Sequence record: OR188720.1
Length of the DNA stretch: 38,820 nt
Origin: Pseudomonas phage LPPA33
Reading direction: 5' to 3' (one strand)
The notes beneath the pieces were generated by a model. It worked only from the letters and a program-made list of their open reading frames with translations, ran no database searches and was not told where the DNA came from. Both the position numbers and the translations under genes were made by a program. Shown in pieces: positions 7,543-36,672 of the stretch. Numbering within the stretch: the stretch's first letter is position 1; every line of letters starts with the position of its first letter.

Positions 7543-7737
7543 ATGAAGAGCGATCCCCAGGTGCCGGCCACGGTCGACGCCGCGCCTCCGGCTGCGCTGA
7601 ACAAAGCCGTCGAGGTCACCCTGGCAAAGGTGCATTGGCACCAGGGCGAGGAGAAGGCGGCCGGCGAAAAGATCAACGTCAGCCCTGACCAGGTTGAATT
7701 CCTGCGCCGCGAAGGCGTGATCAAGAAGGAGGCCTGA
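7543..7737 (+). CDS. Hypothetical small protein in the tail module.
   Basis: 64 aa with a good SD (GAGGGG, 7-nt spacing) and high GC3. Confidence 0.4.
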   Translation: MKSDPQVPATVDAAPPAALNKAVEVTLAKVHWHQGEEKAAGEKINVSPDQVEFLRREGVIKKEA

Positions 7738-7738
7738 T

Positions 7739-8491
7739 ATGGCTATCGAGAAAGAGACGTATGTGATCGGCGGACCCTTCAAGATCCGCGAGTCTGGCGC
7801 CACCGCACCCTTCCAGTTCGCTGGCCTGGTGTCCACTATCCAGCAGACCATCGAGACCAACGAGATCACTCTGCCGGATACCACCACCCCGCAGGGTGGT
7901 GAGTACGATGCCGTTTCGCGCATCACTTCGGTCGGGTTGTCGATCAACTTCCGCGAACTCAAGACCAGCATTCTGGCTGCCTTAGTGTGGGGGGACGCCA
8001 CCAACGTTCCTTCTGCCACCCATACCGATGAAGCGCACACCGCCGTTCCGGGAGGCACGATCGCGCTCGACTTCATGCCGCTGGAGATCACCAGCGTGAA
8101 GAGCGATGACGGCACTACGACCTACGAAGAGTTCGACGACTGGAACATGACCGGCGCCGGCATCGAAATCGTTGAAGGGGGTGCGATCTCTGCGGCCACG
8201 CCGATCAAGGTGACTTACAAGTCCGCCACCGTCGATGTGATCGAGGCGCTGACCAACAGCGGCAAGACGTTCGAATTCCTCTTCGAGGGCGAGAACGCCG
8301 CTGGTACTCAGCGTCGCATCCAGGCGCGCTATTTCCGGTGCCGCCTGAACCCGTCGAGCCAGCAGGATTGGATCAACACCGAAGACTTCCTGGCTGCCGA
8401 GGCCACTGCCAAGGTGCTGATGGACCCGACCAAGGTCGGCGCTGGAAAATCGAAGTACTTCAACATCAAGAAGGAACTGGCGACGGTGTGA
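7739..8491 (+). CDS. Major tail (tube) protein.
   Basis: 250 aa, a size like lambda V. SD is AAGGAGG. It lies directly upstream of the chaperone and tape-measure block. Confidence 0.6.
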   Translation: MAIEKETYVIGGPFKIRESGATAPFQFAGLVSTIQQTIETNEITLPDTTTPQGGEYDAVSRITSVGLSINFRELKTSILAALVWGDATNVPSATHTDEAHTAVPGGTIALDFMPLEITSVKSDDGTTTYEEFDDWNMTGAGIEIVEGGAISAATPIKVTYKSATVDVIEALTNSGKTFEFLFEGENAAGTQRRIQARYFRCRLNPSSQQDWINTEDFLAAEATAKVLMDPTKVGAGKSKYFNIKKELATV

Positions 8492-8572
8492 CGCCGTTCA
8501 TGCCCGGCAGGGACGCCGGATGTGGGCTCGCCCGCGTGGTGCTACAGTTGCGCCATTTAGGGAGGGGTTGAA

Positions 8573-9094
8573 ATGTACTCTAGGTCGCGCGGATTTTCCC
8601 TTATCGAGTTGATGGTTGTGGTCGTACTCTTGGCCGTTTTGGCATTCATGGCCGTTCCGAGCTTCAAGGCTATGCAGGAGGGGAACAACCATCTAGCCGG
8701 CAAAGAAGTTTTTCTCCAGCACCTGGAATTTGCCAGGTCCTATGCGCTGTCAAAAAAGACAACTGTCGAAGTCTGTGCAGAAAGTGGAGGGTGGACTGAC
8801 GGATATATCGTGCGCACAGATTCTGGTAAGACTGTTTTGCTTAAGGAAAATAAGTATAAGAACATCCATCCAGTTGGAGCGTGGAAAGGCTCTATGGAGT
8901 ATGGGTGTGTGCGATTCGTATCCAATGGGAGCGCACCCGCGGTGCCTGCCCCGACGGGGGAGTACTACGACTCTGGTTTCTTCGGTGGTGAAGAGCTGGA
9001 CAAGGCTGCTTGGCGGGTGACGTTCAAGCCGTCTGGCTGGAACTGCACTGAGAAAGATCCTAAAGACCCTAAGTGCGCCAAGAAACCAACCTGA
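8573..9094 (+). CDS. Type IV pilin-like protein (prepilin-type N-terminal methylation domain; FimT/GspH-like minor pilin or pseudopilin). A moron inside the tail operon.
   Basis: 173 aa. It has a short leader (MYSRSR), then the G|FSLIELMVVVVLLAVLAFMAVP class III signal with Glu+5 and a hydrophobic helix, and C-terminal Cys residues. The local GC is lower than in the flanking tail genes. SD is GGGAGGGG. Confidence 0.65.
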   Translation: MYSRSRGFSLIELMVVVVLLAVLAFMAVPSFKAMQEGNNHLAGKEVFLQHLEFARSYALSKKTTVEVCAESGGWTDGYIVRTDSGKTVLLKENKYKNIHPVGAWKGSMEYGCVRFVSNGSAPAVPAPTGEYYDSGFFGGEELDKAAWRVTFKPSGWNCTEKDPKDPKCAKKPT

Positions 9095-9165
9095 TCGCCG
9101 GCTTGTGTTCTTGGTAATGGCCTGTTGATGCTAAAGTGTGAAGCGGTTCCAATGGAGAGTCGCTT

Positions 9166-9693
9166 ATGACACGGATTTTTCCCGTTCTCGCCTTGCTTCT
9201 TGCGGTCAGTTCTGCCAGTGGGGCGACGGTCTTTAAGTGCGTCGGCCCTGACGGAAAAGTCACTTTTACCCAGCAGAATTGCCCTGACAACCAATCGCTG
9301 AACGATGTGGTTTCTGCCACCAACCAGCGCCCAAGCGGGTCAGGTGCCTCGGCTGTCATGGCCAAGCCCAAGCAGCCATCAGGTCGTACCTATAGAGGTA
9401 GTCACCAGGTCGGCAGCGGAGTGATCGTCGTCGGTGGTTCGTCGCCAAGCCCTACGTGTTCCACAGGACTATCTGAGCGTGACCTTCGCAAGGCCAAGGT
9501 CCAGGGCAAGGTCGTTCCTGGAATGTCCAGGGAGGACGTGGAAAGCATCTACGGGAAGGTGAACCGCAACGGCAGTACCGCCGGCGCGGGTGCTGTCACC
9601 TACTGGAATGACAAGTATGTTGACCAGACGACCGTTTCGTTTGATCGTAACGGATGCGTCCAGGGTTCATACCAATCGGGCCACAAGAACTAG
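9166..9693 (+). CDS. Secreted protein with a signal peptide, a DUF4124-like N-terminal domain and a BamE/SmpA-like C-terminal motif. Second gene of the moron cassette.
   Basis: 175 aa. The signal peptide is MTRIFPVLALLLAVSSASGA, followed by a VFKCVGPDGKVTFTQQNCP motif and a later ...VPGMSREDVESIYGKV motif. It is lower in GC than its surroundings and has SD GGAGAG. Confidence 0.45.
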   Translation: MTRIFPVLALLLAVSSASGATVFKCVGPDGKVTFTQQNCPDNQSLNDVVSATNQRPSGSGASAVMAKPKQPSGRTYRGSHQVGSGVIVVGGSSPSPTCSTGLSERDLRKAKVQGKVVPGMSREDVESIYGKVNRNGSTAGAGAVTYWNDKYVDQTTVSFDRNGCVQGSYQSGHKN

Positions 9694-9716
9694 CCGATAT
9701 AACGCTTTTTAAACAG

Positions 9717-9744
9717 CCCCGCCATTCGGCGGGGTTTGTGCTTT
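9717..9744 (+). terminator. Rho-independent terminator closing the pilin/DUF4124 cassette.
   Basis: CCCCGCC-attc-GGCGGGG hairpin followed by TTTGTGCTTT. Confidence 0.55.
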
Positions 9745-9757
9745 CTGGAGGGTTGAA

Positions 9758-10060
9758 ATGTCCAGCTTTACTGCAAGTAGAGTTGTAGATATTGATGGCG
9801 TTGAGTTGACCGTGCGGGAACTTAGCGTTGCGGATGTTCGAAAGCTAATGCAAGAGGTCAGCGATCAAGACCTCGTCAACAATGTCCTCTTCGAAGATAT
9901 CAGGCTATCCGATCTGTGCCTGATGACGTCGGTTACGAAGAGCCAAATTAACGATCTCCGGCCTAGCCAACTCGCCAAGTTGCGGGATGCATGTAAAGAG
10001 GTGAACCCGCATTTTTTCGGAATGCTGGGCCGTCTCTCGAAACTCCCCGACAAGCCATAA
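9758..10060 (+). CDS. Tail assembly chaperone, lambda gpG-like.
   Basis: 100 aa. DGVELTVRELSVADVRKLMQE resembles lambda G (NGVTVTLSELSALQRIEHLALM). It is directly upstream of the tape measure gene, and a slippery site lies near its 3' end. Confidence 0.6.
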   Translation: MSSFTASRVVDIDGVELTVRELSVADVRKLMQEVSDQDLVNNVLFEDIRLSDLCLMTSVTKSQINDLRPSQLAKLRDACKEVNPHFFGMLGRLSKLPDKP

Positions 10061-10161
10061 GGAGTTTGGAGCGCGCCATTTGCGTTCTGGTGAGGCTTGG
10101 GCATCACCACGTCCTTGAATATCCCTGGTCGCTGTTCTTGACCGCGCTGAAGGCTGAATGA
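10012..10161 (+). other. Putative -1 programmed frameshift site (T_TTT_TTC, 10012-10018) that would give a G-T fusion chaperone. The -1 frame stays open to 10161, immediately before the tape-measure ATG.
   Basis: The heptamer sits in the zero frame of the G-like gene as X_XXY_YYZ. The -1 frame has no stop for about 48 codons and terminates at TGA 10159-10161. The canonical G/GT-TMP arrangement is established knowledge. Confidence 0.4.
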
Positions 10162-15875: not shown

Positions 15876-16298
15876 ATGGCTCTATCAGATGAGCGCCGCG
15901 GCATCGGCGCAAGGAACGAAGCGATCCGCCGCGCCGGCGGCCAGCGGGTCGAAGCGGAGCGACGCGGTGACCAGGGTTTGACCGCCGCGCTCAACCGGCT
16001 GATCGAGCCGGAACGCCAGGCGCGGTCGCTGCGGAAAATCGATCCGCGCGGCGCCCTGGATGCAAAGCGCGGGCGGGCGGACTACAACCCCGCCGGAAAG
16101 CAGCTCGGTGGGGGTGGCGGTATTGCGAGCCCCCTGATCGAGGAAGATGCCGACCAGCGCGAATACTACGAACTGCAGACAATCCCCACCAGCGATGGCC
16201 TGGCCTGGCTCCGGTATCGCAGCGTGAAGAAGATCGTCATGACCGACGCGTTAGGCGCAGAAGTGGTGATGGAGTACGCGAACGATGTTTCCCAATAG
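15876..16298 (+). CDS. Hypothetical tail-module protein.
   Basis: 140 aa. SD is GGAGGTGG. Confidence 0.35.
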   Translation: MALSDERRGIGARNEAIRRAGGQRVEAERRGDQGLTAALNRLIEPERQARSLRKIDPRGALDAKRGRADYNPAGKQLGGGGGIASPLIEEDADQREYYELQTIPTSDGLAWLRYRSVKKIVMTDALGAEVVMEYANDVSQ

Positions 16299-17778
16299 TC
16301 CGCTCGATGAAGCTCCGCAGGTATGGGGGTGGCCATGGCACGGCCTAATACGACAGCCAATCAACGCCGTTGATTCGACCCTGACGTTACCAAGCGGGCG
16401 CACGATGACGATGCCGCCTGTCAGGCTCGCAAATAATACGGCCCTTTGGGACGTAGGCATGCCTATCCCTGAAGTGGAAACCGATGATCCAGATGAGCAG
16501 TGGCTAAACCGAGCGATTTTGCGTGGAACGGATTTGTCCGAAGCTTATGGCGGGGTTTCCTTACAGCCTGCATTTATTCGTGGTTACACGATTCGATACG
16601 GCGTAAGCGTTCAATACAATTTTTTTCTCGAAACAATAGCTGCTAGCTGTTTGTTTCGGGATGGATTTACAGGGTTTTCTGGGACGGTCAGTAGTAATGC
16701 AATATCTCTGTCAGACCTTGGATTGCCCGTCAAGCCGGACGGTATCTCTTTCGAAGTTCTGGATGTAAATAACGACGGAACACGCCGTCTCTACCTGGCT
16801 AGATATCAAGAGACCGCTGGGAGTGGATTCATTGGTGTTGGTGGGATGCTTGAGTTGCGTGTGAGTGCGAGCGGCGCGAACAGCTTTCAGGCGGAACTGT
16901 CCGTGGTTGCGCCTTGGGCGCAGATACAATTCGAGACTATCGACAGCAGCCGAACAGATGTTGACCCGAATACCCATACCCGCTTTTGGCGTGGGACGCC
17001 GGAGGACCCAGACGGCCCGTTCAATGAAAGCAGTGGAGAGCCGCCACCCCCGCCATACCCGGGGCATCCGTGGGCGCCTCACGTGTATAGAGTTCTAATC
17101 GGAGAGTTTTCAGCATCACTTCGCGCAAGGTCAACTGCTGGAGCGTGGTATGGATTGTCTGGCTCCCTTGAACTAATAACGCTCGAAGTTTCTATCGTGT
17201 CAACGATGTCGCGCTCGGCAGGTATCTCTGGCGACCACATCTCATTTAGCATGACCGAAGATATTTCGTTTTCCTACACCTTGAGCTCTTCTTCCGGCGG
17301 GTCCTCAGAGTCGCTGTACAACTCGCTTTCTACGAGCGGAGTTCTTAATGGGCCTGGTTCTATCCAATGGGCTGACAGCATCACTGGTCAAAGTGTCGCG
17401 AGTGGCTCGGAGTCTATTAGCTTGGGTGATATATACCTGCTTACTCCTGATGTTGGCGACAGTTATGCGGAAGGATTGGACTGGTCGTCACCAATTGAGC
17501 TGTTCCCGGGGCGTCCGTCGACGATAAGCGACCAATCTGCGTGGCCGGTGCTTAGATACTCAAACAAGCTTTTAGGCCTTTTTTTCTATCGTGGTAGAGA
17601 CCGTCGGTTTGCTGGAGTGGCTCTCACCCCGCATGGCCCCCACGGATCGCGTCAGGTTGATGTGGATGTTAGTGGCTTTTCCCCGTTAGAGATGGAGGCG
17701 TGGGGCAAGGGCTCCTACAACCCTCTCACCGGCGACGCTATACGCAACGACCCGAACGCCTTCTATTCCTACGTTTGA
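16285..17778 (+). CDS. Low-GC tail-tip protein, a candidate receptor-binding or host-range protein.
   Basis: 497 aa with about 47-50% GC, well below the roughly 63% of its neighbours. A Ser-rich stretch is SSSSGGSSESLYNSLSTSG. The start is uncertain because the first ATG has no clear SD. Confidence 0.4.
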   Translation: MFPNSPLDEAPQVWGWPWHGLIRQPINAVDSTLTLPSGRTMTMPPVRLANNTALWDVGMPIPEVETDDPDEQWLNRAILRGTDLSEAYGGVSLQPAFIRGYTIRYGVSVQYNFFLETIAASCLFRDGFTGFSGTVSSNAISLSDLGLPVKPDGISFEVLDVNNDGTRRLYLARYQETAGSGFIGVGGMLELRVSASGANSFQAELSVVAPWAQIQFETIDSSRTDVDPNTHTRFWRGTPEDPDGPFNESSGEPPPPPYPGHPWAPHVYRVLIGEFSASLRARSTAGAWYGLSGSLELITLEVSIVSTMSRSAGISGDHISFSMTEDISFSYTLSSSSGGSSESLYNSLSTSGVLNGPGSIQWADSITGQSVASGSESISLGDIYLLTPDVGDSYAEGLDWSSPIELFPGRPSTISDQSAWPVLRYSNKLLGLFFYRGRDRRFAGVALTPHGPHGSRQVDVDVSGFSPLEMEAWGKGSYNPLTGDAIRNDPNAFYSYV

Positions 17779-35446: not shown

Positions 35447-36121
35447 ATGATTTACGAAAGCGTTTCAAGTGCGGTCGTTTCGGCGCTGGCAGCAGACTGC
35501 ATCGACAACACAAGCAAGCAGGCATGGCAAAAGCTCTATCAGGCCGGCGAGCCTGGTCGTCGTGGCGGAGTGATGGTATCCGCTGATCTCAGGCAGCAAA
35601 TCGATTGCTGGGTACATGCTCGCTTGCATGACCAACTTATTCCGCGCCACTGGGCGGCGCTGGTGGCGAAGTACAGCACTCACCAGGCTAAGAAAGTCCA
35701 GGCGATCTCTCTTCTGCGGTCGGTGGTCGCAACGCCGGCTCCTGCTCTTTTCCTCTACAAGGCTATAACGACTTGGGCGATTCCGAAACTGAAGGGTGTC
35801 CAGCCGGCGCTGCGGAAAACCGTCTCTGTCGAAATCCCAGTGGACGGATCACCAGAAAAGCAGGCCAGGGCCGTGCGCGCCGCGCTGGAGGCAGAGCGAG
35901 TGAAGCGGAAGCGCCTTATGGCTCGATCGTCTGGAATGATCGTCCTGCCGGATGAGTTCTACGACATGAACACATGGGATCTCGATGGAAAGCCCGAATC
36001 GACTCGGCGTGAGTGGCGCAGGAAGATTCATCGTGTTCTCGACGAAATGGTCGACGAGGCGCTGGTGGCGGCCGAGCAGATTCTCAACGCGGAGGGCTTG
36101 CTGGCCAAGGATGCGGCATAG
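35447..36121 (+). CDS. Hypothetical protein in the lambda Q position (candidate late antiterminator).
   Basis: About 224 aa from the ATG with SD GGAGGAGAGG. It ends immediately before a promoter-like site and a tandem terminator pair. Confidence 0.3.
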   Translation: MIYESVSSAVVSALAADCIDNTSKQAWQKLYQAGEPGRRGGVMVSADLRQQIDCWVHARLHDQLIPRHWAALVAKYSTHQAKKVQAISLLRSVVATPAPALFLYKAITTWAIPKLKGVQPALRKTVSVEIPVDGSPEKQARAVRAALEAERVKRKRLMARSSGMIVLPDEFYDMNTWDLDGKPESTRREWRRKIHRVLDEMVDEALVAAEQILNAEGLLAKDAA

Positions 36122-36125
36122 GGCT

Positions 36126-36160
36126 TGACTTGCTGTCATCACTCCATCAATATTTATCCC
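36126..36160 (+). promoter_or_regulatory. PR'-like late promoter candidate (TTGACT-N17-CAATAT).
   Basis: Seen at 36126-36154, followed by a structured leader of about 200 nt with two terminators before the holin. Confidence 0.3.
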
Positions 36161-36201
36161 ATCCTGCCGATCTTGCGCGTTTTGAGGATCGAGCAACAAA
36201 G

Positions 36202-36226
36202 AGCCCAGCCTTCGAGCTGGGCTTTT
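36202..36226 (+). terminator. Intrinsic terminator 1 in the late leader (tR'-like).
   Basis: AGCCCAGC-cttcga-GCTGGGCT followed by TTTT. Confidence 0.55.
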
Positions 36227-36300
36227 CCGTTTCTGCAGGTGGCGCATTGCGCTGCGGGGCGCGCGGCCCCCTTGAAAGGCCGTACCTGCACCTATCCCTG

Positions 36301-36325
36301 GCCCAGCCCTCGCGCTGGGCTTTTT
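36301..36325 (+). terminator. Intrinsic terminator 2 in the late leader (a duplicate of the terminator 1 stem).
   Basis: GCCCAGC-cctcgc-GCTGGGC followed by TTTTT. Confidence 0.55.
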
Positions 36326-36357
36326 CATTTCCGCCCCGCCGAGGGGATATCGAGACT

Positions 36358-36672
36358 ATGAAGATGCCAGAGAAGGACCCGTCATTCTGGGCCACGGTGC
36401 TGCTCGCGCTGCGCGAGCAAGGGCTGGCGATGGGGCTCGCCTTCATCCTTACCTGGCTCCGTACCCAGTACGAGGGGAAGGAGCCGAGCATTGTTCGGCA
36501 ACTGATCGAGGCGGCCCTTGGCGCGATGCTGGTCATGGTTGTCGGTCTCACCGCCAAGGAGTTTGGCTGGAGCCCTGCCTGGCAGTTCTTCGCCGCCGGC
36601 TTTGTTGGTGTCCTCGGGGTAAGCACCGTGCAAAAGCTGGGCGCACGCTGGGCGGAAAGGAAGGTGGGCTGA
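36358..36672 (+). CDS. S: Holin, lambda S family (class I) with an MKM dual-start motif.
   Basis: 104 aa. MKMPEKDPSFWATVLLALREQGLAMGLAFILTWLRTQYEG matches lambda S ([39 protein letters not shown]). Three TM segments. Confidence 0.85.
   Translation: MKMPEKDPSFWATVLLALREQGLAMGLAFILTWLRTQYEGKEPSIVRQLIEAALGAMLVMVVGLTAKEFGWSPAWQFFAAGFVGVLGVSTVQKLGARWAERKVG

Follow-up and report, generated by a model that had tools for sequence, protein, structure and literature searches.

Tip, Zip and PfsE block all pilus-dependent phages by targeting PilB, PilZ or PilC. They are encoded by prophages (D3112, JBD26 and Pf, respectively), act on the type IV pilus and lead to superinfection exclusion in Pseudomonas aeruginosa. 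The P-FimU proteins resemble them in all three respects, but while Tip, Zip and PfsE shut down pilus assembly or function, P-FimU keeps the pilus working and alters only what is displayed at its tip. How such accessory genes are carried is described by the moron model of Juhala and Hendrix, in which lambdoid phages (HK97/HK022) reportedly harbor units in which a single gene is combined with a promoter-like element and with an intrinsic terminator and which are expressed in the lysogen. P-FimU proteins are encoded by F10-like phages, with the tail tube gene on one side and the gene for the tail assembly chaperone on the other (PMC12952977). Here, we focus on the corresponding interval of Pseudomonas phage LPPA33 (OR188720.1), whose entire sequence of 38,820 nucleotides is referred to as the window. 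Two genes lie in this interval, a pilin gene (p-fimU) and a gene for a secreted protein with a DUF4124 domain, which a first-pass annotation had described as one inserted cassette.

The mechanism of P-FimU has been worked out for several members. In the JBD68 prophage, p-fimU is transcribed at about the level of the host fimU gene according to RNA-seq data, and its predicted promoter is conserved (PMC12952977). JBD68 P-FimU engages in the same pilin interactions as FimU and localizes to the pilus tip, where P-FimU takes the place of the host protein in a working pilus that is not poisoned and supports unaltered twitching (PMC12952977). Adsorption, as shown for JBD68 P-FimU, is blocked only for F10-like phages that bind the pilus tip, and sensitivity to P-FimU is set by the phage tail-tip protein PTP4 (PMC12952977). 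P-FimU proteins fall into the CAAD, BWH and NSYG groups, which are 45-76% identical among themselves; CAAD is the only P-FimU that blocks LESφ2, which is not blocked by its own P-FimU, and CAAD does not block F10 or LESφ3 (PMC12952977).

Comparison of the window with related phages suggests that the interval from the tail tube to the chaperone gene is a hotspot for cargo, which in this phage appears to hold two stacked, independently mobile morons. The first would provide a CAAD-type P-FimU and the second an independent factor acting in the cell envelope, and we consider this account as a whole very probable. The anatomy, family membership and mobility of the two genes and the match to PTP4 are our own observations; the mechanism of P-FimU was demonstrated by others for the CAAD type. 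The features on which the account is built are the following:

7739-8491, + strand: gene for the tail tube (major tail), conserved flank on the left side of the slot (NF052337 tail_tube_6XGR, 5e-30; phrog_807, 2.3e-77)
8492-8519, + strand: 28 nt after the tube stop codon, common to all slot variants, with the left recombination boundary just beyond
8540-8548, + strand: candidate extended -10 element of p-fimU (TGcTACAGT; TGCTANAGT motif)
8561-8576, + strand: Shine-Dalgarno and start region of p-fimU (GGAGGGGTTGAAATGT)
8573-9094, + strand: p-fimU, CAAD type by sequence, FimU-like minor pilin of 173 aa
9129-9137, + strand: candidate extended -10 element of the DUF4124 moron (TGcTAAAGT; TGCTANAGT motif)
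9166-9693, + strand: secreted DUF4124 plus BamE-like protein of 175 aa, apparently an independent moron
9715-9746, + strand: intrinsic terminator GCCCCGCC-ATTC-GGCGGGGT with T-rich tail (stem 9715-9736, -19.1 kcal/mol)
9747-9761, + strand: Shine-Dalgarno and start region of the chaperone gene (GGAGGGTTGAAATGT), near-identical to that of p-fimU
9758-10161, + strand: tail assembly chaperone G (9758-10060) and its -1 frameshift product GT (Phage_TAC_7, phrog_7608)
16285-17778, + strand: homolog of the tail-tip protein PTP4, LESφ2 type (tblastn)

Both open reading frames of the interval lie where the first-pass annotation had placed them (8573-9094, 173 aa; 9166-9693, 175 aa), and its assignment of the first product to the FimU/FimT/GspH prepilins was confirmed by the profile search it had called for. 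The protein starts with MYSRSRG-FSLIELM and thus carries a prepilin leader with G at -1, F at +1 and Glu at +5, and it exceeds the Pfam cut-offs in its matches to N_methyl (E=2.9e-8) and to GspH (PF12019; E=7.9e-7). The equivalog model for GspH of the type II secretion system (TIGR01708) is matched over the N-terminal 70 residues only, with 34.6 bits against a cut-off of 80. A sequence search of solved structures returned only the generic N-terminal pilin helix. Fold comparison of the model brought up FimU, and the two share a FimU-like fold at 15% identity in a structural alignment with the host protein (PAO1, PDB 4IPU). In contrast to host members of the FimU/GspH/FimT family, the window protein is phage-encoded and has two additional, poorly predicted segments (residues 123-143 and 166-173), which fits the description of P-FimU as having one extra loop and a C-terminal extension (PMC12952977).

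Both published primers for cloning CAAD P-FimU have exact matches in the window, one at either end of the gene (8566-8591 and 9074-9094). Outside the MD8 type, the closest relative is P0070 (in L022-25); it bears the BWH reverse primer of PMC12952977 and is 76% identical, in agreement with the published range between groups. As for the described P-FimUs, the gene sits between the tail tube and chaperone genes of an F10-like P. aeruginosa phage. Judging by these matches, the pilin gene at 8573-9094 is the CAAD-type P-FimU of Sztanko et al. (Cell Rep 2026; PMC12952977). Host species, phage group, slot, promoter and leader region, primers and fold all agree, and there is no substantive difference between the two. 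The pilin had already been annotated in phage MD8 (PMC8508860), and its mechanism was published in January 2026 (PMC12952977). This half of the locus is therefore known, and our analysis of it amounts to an independent rediscovery, without new biology, of how a prophage replaces part of its own receptor with a functional decoy. The neighboring DUF4124 gene, the terminator, the identity of the ribosome-binding sites (RBSs) and phage MD8 are not mentioned in the main text of PMC12952977.

An observation beyond that work is that the window carries CAAD P-FimU together with a PTP4 of the type that CAAD blocks. In tblastn comparisons, PTP4 of the window shows 98.8% identity to the LESφ2 protein, 99% to the MD8 protein and 58.5% to the gp19 region of JBD68, and no match was detectable in F10, LESφ3, Solano or the CF phages. 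The co-occurrence of the two in one genome suggests self-exclusion of the lysogen, that is, the phage probably excludes its own kind, which fits the proposed arms race between P-FimU and PTP4. In the lysogen, a weak extended -10 promoter belonging to p-fimU would drive its expression. The product would probably be processed by PilD like a prepilin and join the minor-pilin complex at the pilus tip, next to host FimU or as its substitute. Pilus function would be preserved, and tip-binding F10-like phages whose PTP4 cannot engage P-FimU would fail to adsorb.

Superinfection exclusion was part of the first-pass annotation as well, and the published data bear this out, but not the route it proposed. 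There, a phage-borne minor pilin was suggested to poison or re-prime type IV pilus assembly, resulting in altered twitching or in exclusion of pilus-dependent phages in general, in the spirit of Tip and Aqs1 though by a different mechanism; such an outcome would also resemble that of Zip. Membership in the FimU/GspH prepilin family agrees with this idea, as does the observation that pilus assembly can suffer when host FimU is over-expressed (PMC12952977). However, P-FimU proteins including CAAD restore twitching as well as infection by DMS3 and D3112 in a ΔfimU strain, pilus numbers are unchanged and five other groups of pilus-dependent phages are unaffected (PMC12952977). These data argue for functional replacement. 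With a block confined to F10-like tip binders, poisoning is largely refuted, and we regard it as very improbable.

The second line of evidence concerns the slot itself, which was found in all 32 F10-like phages. On the left, CGCC(G/A)TTCATGCCCGGCAGGGACGCCGG is common to slots of the p-fimU type, DUF4124-only slots and the slot of locus L021, and the sequences diverge thereafter. On the right, the part common to all variants consists of the terminator's 3' half, the RBS of the chaperone gene and this gene itself. Between these fixed flanks the content varies or is replaced among phages whose tube and chaperone proteins are 99-100% identical; homologous recombination thus appears to exchange the cargo. 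The slot is occupied in each of the 32 close relatives. In the distant relative Ralstonia RS138, whose chaperone is only 40% identical, the tube and chaperone genes are 21 bp apart, as expected of genes flanking a moron. This comparison shows the filling of the slot to be secondary, and the first-pass view of the two genes as accessory cargo and not as core tail genes holds. The arrangement resembles lambdoid morons in its insertion between genes that adjoin each other in a relative and in a composition unlike that of the neighbors. It differs in that two morons are stacked, the flanks are fixed and the same cargo alternates between this slot and a second one between the Q-position gene and the holin gene (the Q-holin slot).

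Insertion sequence (IS) elements with two transposase open reading frames each have entered the tube-chaperone slot twice independently. The element of MD8 (L001, 2857-4259) lies between the two morons and that of D14L (L010, 2926-4317) just past the stop codon of the DUF4124 gene.

In the window, the Q-holin slot (35447-36672) is empty, with about 220 nt between the 224-aa Q-position gene and the holin gene, and no extra copy of either moron gene was found in the window. This slot is occupied in other P. aeruginosa prophages, either by a BWH-type p-fimU, with or without HicAB, or by an 83% identical DUF4124 variant. The BWH-type copy is preceded by about 85 nt homologous to the intergenic region between tube gene and p-fimU; these contain TGCTACAGT as well as the same Shine-Dalgarno region in a diverged version. 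In L022 (4960-5040 against 8480-8576 of the window) the whole intergenic region is recognizable in diverged form, apparently including the last codons of the tube gene, which suggests a move of the cassette out of the tail slot into the Q-holin slot. Exchange of a small common set of cargo between the two slots, each cargo with a TGCTAnAGT box and a CCCCGC-hairpin terminator, goes beyond PMC12952977.

Variable slot content also bears on the virion-exposed adhesin that the first-pass annotation gave as an alternative for the pilin, and more widely on the idea that one or both proteins are virion components, for example an adhesin exposed on the tail, and are made from the late operon. The genes do lie within the tail cluster on the same strand and would be part of late transcripts if the terminator is read through. 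Yet the slot content differs between phages with nearly identical tube and chaperone proteins, the same genes occupy the Q-holin slot of other prophages, and both proteins bear export signals for the host envelope. Furthermore, deletion of p-fimU does not affect replication of JBD68, which contradicts the adhesin, and the virion components listed for that phage are gp16-24 and not gp10 (PMC12952977). A role in the virion is thus scarcely credible. Cargo status remains the preferred reading for both genes.

Next to the flanks, the two translation initiation regions inform on the origin of p-fimU. They have GGAGGG(G)TTGAAATGT in common, and the 10-mer GGTTGAAATG occurs at only these two sites in the window compared to 0.05 expected. 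No other start site of the late operon resembles them. The near-exact copy noticed in the first-pass annotation is therefore real, although the coordinates given for the second copy were off by one; it lies at 9747-9761. The start region of p-fimU is invariant in all p-fimU genes of the tube-chaperone slot and moves with the gene into the Q-holin slot, where it reads GGGAGGTAGTTGGAATG. The chaperone RBS, GGAGG(G/A)TTGAAATG, is found in phages with and without p-fimU and is more diverged in F10, LES and JBD68; the start region reads GGAGGATTGAAATG in CF55b, GGAGTAATGAAATG in F10 and GGAGTCGAAAATG in LES and JBD68. Together with the terminator, it is present in every slot variant including those lacking p-fimU. 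An insertion at the RBS of gene G that duplicated this site, as proposed in the first-pass annotation, is plausible but unproven. The data would agree with an origin of p-fimU at the chaperone RBS and a later move to the Q-holin slot, because the copy there seems to keep a remnant of the tube gene end.

Each of the two genes is preceded by a promoter-like element. The motif TGCTANAGT has exactly two sites in the window, 25-29 nt before the ATG of each moron, where 0.34 are expected by chance; 3 of 100 shuffled sequences reached two copies. We read these boxes as candidate weak extended -10 promoters. The element of p-fimU is kept upstream of BWH-type p-fimU in the other slot. The DUF4124 gene is accompanied by a block of TGCTA[A/G]AGTGTGA[A/G]G followed by GGAGAGTCGCT in CF55b, in L021 and in the Q-holin slot of L018/phi2. 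This block and the CCCCGC-loop-GCGGGG terminator are retained in every phage context compared except that of a 60% identical variant (L016). The first-pass annotation had asked for a promoter inside 8492-8572. This region of 82 nt as a whole is identical to that of F10, it contains the candidate at 8540-8548, and the expression and predicted promoter of JBD68 p-fimU (PMC12952977) point in the same direction, so this expectation is supported in part; a consensus sigma-70 promoter was not among the findings (see below).

A clean intrinsic terminator behind the second gene had been noted before, and its stem (9715-9736), T-rich tail and stability leave it standing. It cannot be counted as a feature of this cassette alone: the CCCCGC...GCGGGG hairpin is found ahead of the chaperone RBS in all slot variants and its 3' half is shared, which makes it part of the conserved right flank. 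The hairpin also follows the same morons in the Q-holin slot, so that a 3' intrinsic terminator goes with the cargo in both slots, as in the lambdoid morons. Between p-fimU and the DUF4124 gene no terminator was found, and the second gene is thus probably transcribed from both promoters. In the lysogen, the shared terminator would end transcription of the morons ahead of the tail genes, and antiterminated late transcription presumably reads through it during lytic growth. The putative antiterminator would be the product of the Q-position gene (35447-36121, 224 aa) upstream of the holin gene.

The distribution of the second gene suggests that it moves on its own. At 94% identity it is the sole cargo of the slot in about 20 of the 32 F10-like phages (CF/BR series, AV001, D14L), none of which has a P-FimU homolog anywhere in its genome. 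The secreted DUF4124 plus BamE-like protein, and not P-FimU, is therefore the commonest cargo of this slot in sequenced F10-like phages, a point that extends PMC12952977. The 83% variant lies between the Q-position and holin genes in phi2, TC7, D14E, zjk6 and one P. aeruginosa prophage. The 60% variant (L016) lies between the tube and chaperone genes of siphophages with unrelated head genes, and a 150-aa DUF4124 variant occupies the F10-like slot of other prophages, with or without a gene for a Bro-N domain protein (with Bro-N in L019/L020, 4807-6453). Orthologs of 42-48% identity are found at one chromosomal locus of P. citronellolis, P. delhiensis and P. panipatensis. They lie outside prophages and upstream of an MCP gene, with Dus/TAL genes on their own upstream side in three of four genomes (loci L011-L013, L035-L038). 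These chromosomal genes are a possible host ancestor of the phage gene. As the second gene occurs alone, in other slots and in chromosomes, and has its own upstream block and terminator, it is, by this comparative evidence, a separate and independently mobile moron. Hence, the single two-gene cassette of the first-pass annotation does not hold: each gene occurs alone with its own control elements, and here two morons are stacked. In Solano (OR683411.1), tblastn with the DUF4124 protein gives two places.

The same distribution bears on the proposal that the two genes form a functional pair, with the DUF4124 protein as a periplasmic helper for the stability, incorporation or specificity of CAAD P-FimU. 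The model for this is Neisseria TfpC, the only characterized DUF4124 protein and a pilus factor, which keeps type IV pili extended and stabilized (PMC7593972). Co-transcription is likely as there is no terminator between the genes, and in the phage collection the CAAD type occurs only alongside the DUF4124 gene (MD8, Solano and the window). However, in the same two slots either gene is also found unaccompanied by its partner, an IS element separates them in MD8, and CAAD P-FimU works alone from a plasmid (PMC12952977). The resemblance to TfpC is also limited. Both proteins have a signal peptide followed by DUF4124 and are periplasmic, but TfpC shares only this small domain; it continues with a proline-rich linker and a helical C-terminal domain, unlike the BamE-like αα-βββ domain of the window protein, and a search by its authors gave no close P. 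aeruginosa ortholog (PMC7593972). Since the two proteins were compared by description only, TfpC serves as a lead only. We consider a functional pair unlikely and favor independence of the two morons.

What the second protein might do has to be approached from its architecture. The match to DUF4124 (PF13511) is significant (E=2.3e-8, 34.6 bits against a cut-off of 22, residues 9-52), whereas that to BamE (PF04355) stays below its cut-off (15.1 against 23.2 bits). The Sec signal peptide ends with A-x-A followed by (A)TVFKC, and the lack of a lipobox indicates that the protein is not a lipoprotein. Two invariant cysteines lie in the DUF4124 hairpin, which is followed by a variable, poorly predicted linker and, in the model, by a confident αα-βββ domain with two further invariant cysteines. 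Fold is all it has in common with BamE/OmlA/OsmE and with αα-βββ domains of the BLIP type, from which it differs by the missing lipobox, the added DUF4124 domain and the two conserved cysteine pairs. The product name "BamE-like" in the MD8 and Solano records accordingly reflects a shared fold and not a function. No match was found in PADLOC or NCBIfam, a profile search of solved structures yielded only OsmE (E 0.22), and a fold search of viral predicted structures only its own fragment and a weak lipoprotein match. The gene product would be a soluble, Sec-exported periplasmic protein with a disordered linker and a disulfide-bonded binding domain resembling BamE or BLIP.

Our best guess, offered tentatively, is that the second gene encodes another envelope-acting factor for lysogenic conversion, most likely one that shuts out phages during adsorption or entry through contact with an envelope partner. 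We base this on its alternation with p-fimU in two slots and its position next to tail genes in several phage lineages. It is possible, if doubtful, that the protein is a second superinfection-exclusion factor with a distinct mechanism, a phage version of a host envelope protein that acts in the periplasm and whose target might be the type IV pilus machine or the entry of DNA, and, jointly with this, that the DUF4124 gene serves as an alternative cargo to p-fimU in two moron slots and stands in its stead in most sequenced F10-like phages. An unrelated conversion function (immunity, inhibitor or stress protein) follows close behind. The protein could confer immunity against, or inhibit, type VI secretion system effectors, pyocins or lytic enzymes, or could be an envelope-stress protein of the OsmE type. 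Chromosomal orthologs in non-prophage contexts suggest such a role in host physiology. Circumstantial evidence speaks against it, namely the occurrence of the gene in two slots that hold p-fimU in other phages and its location adjacent to tail genes in at least three phage lineages. A function unconnected to exclusion is therefore conceivable, yet somewhat doubtful. If exclusion is the function, the DUF4124 moron would be a candidate for a new envelope-level defence in P. aeruginosa prophages associated with cystic fibrosis. The remaining interest of the locus lies in this moron, in the cognate pairing of P-FimU and PTP4 and in the exchange of cargo between two slots.

Several points weigh against the account of a CAAD P-FimU and an independent envelope moron in a cargo hotspot. 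The identity with the CAAD protein tested by others is drawn from two primers and the family pattern. A sigma-70 consensus scan found no promoter, so that the -35 of the p-fimU element would be weak. The 224-aa Q-position gene has no Pfam match, so that antitermination is deduced from its position alone. Finally, many of the DUF4124-only phages are near-identical and come from one study; hence, 20 of 32 overstates the number of independent observations.

The window represents a complete F10/MD8-like temperate siphophage of P. aeruginosa. Apart from the IS element of MD8 between the two morons, positions 7739-10160 are 99.2% identical to phage MD8, and the same region is 96% identical to phage Solano. 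The tail tube protein is 100% identical to that of F10. The chaperone matches Pfam Phage_TAC_7 weakly (7.9e-5, below the cut-off) and has a slippery site T_TTT_TTC at 10012-10018. In the reconstruction of the frameshift, the -1 frame stops at 10161, giving a GT product of 134 aa that ends 1 nt before the ATG of the tape-measure gene (10163).

The G+C content is 0.517 in the pilin gene and 0.572 in the second gene compared to 0.608 in the window. Low G+C content as a sign of foreign origin was considered and rejected: the chaperone gene, a conserved core gene, has the lowest value of the region (0.498), below both cargo genes, and the dip extends to about 10160. G+C content alone can thus not mark the limits of a cassette or of foreign DNA.

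Directly upstream of the tube gene, an open reading frame of 64 aa (7543-7737) encodes a DUF7210 protein, which is named "DNA-packaging protein FI" in MD8 and is kept in all relatives.

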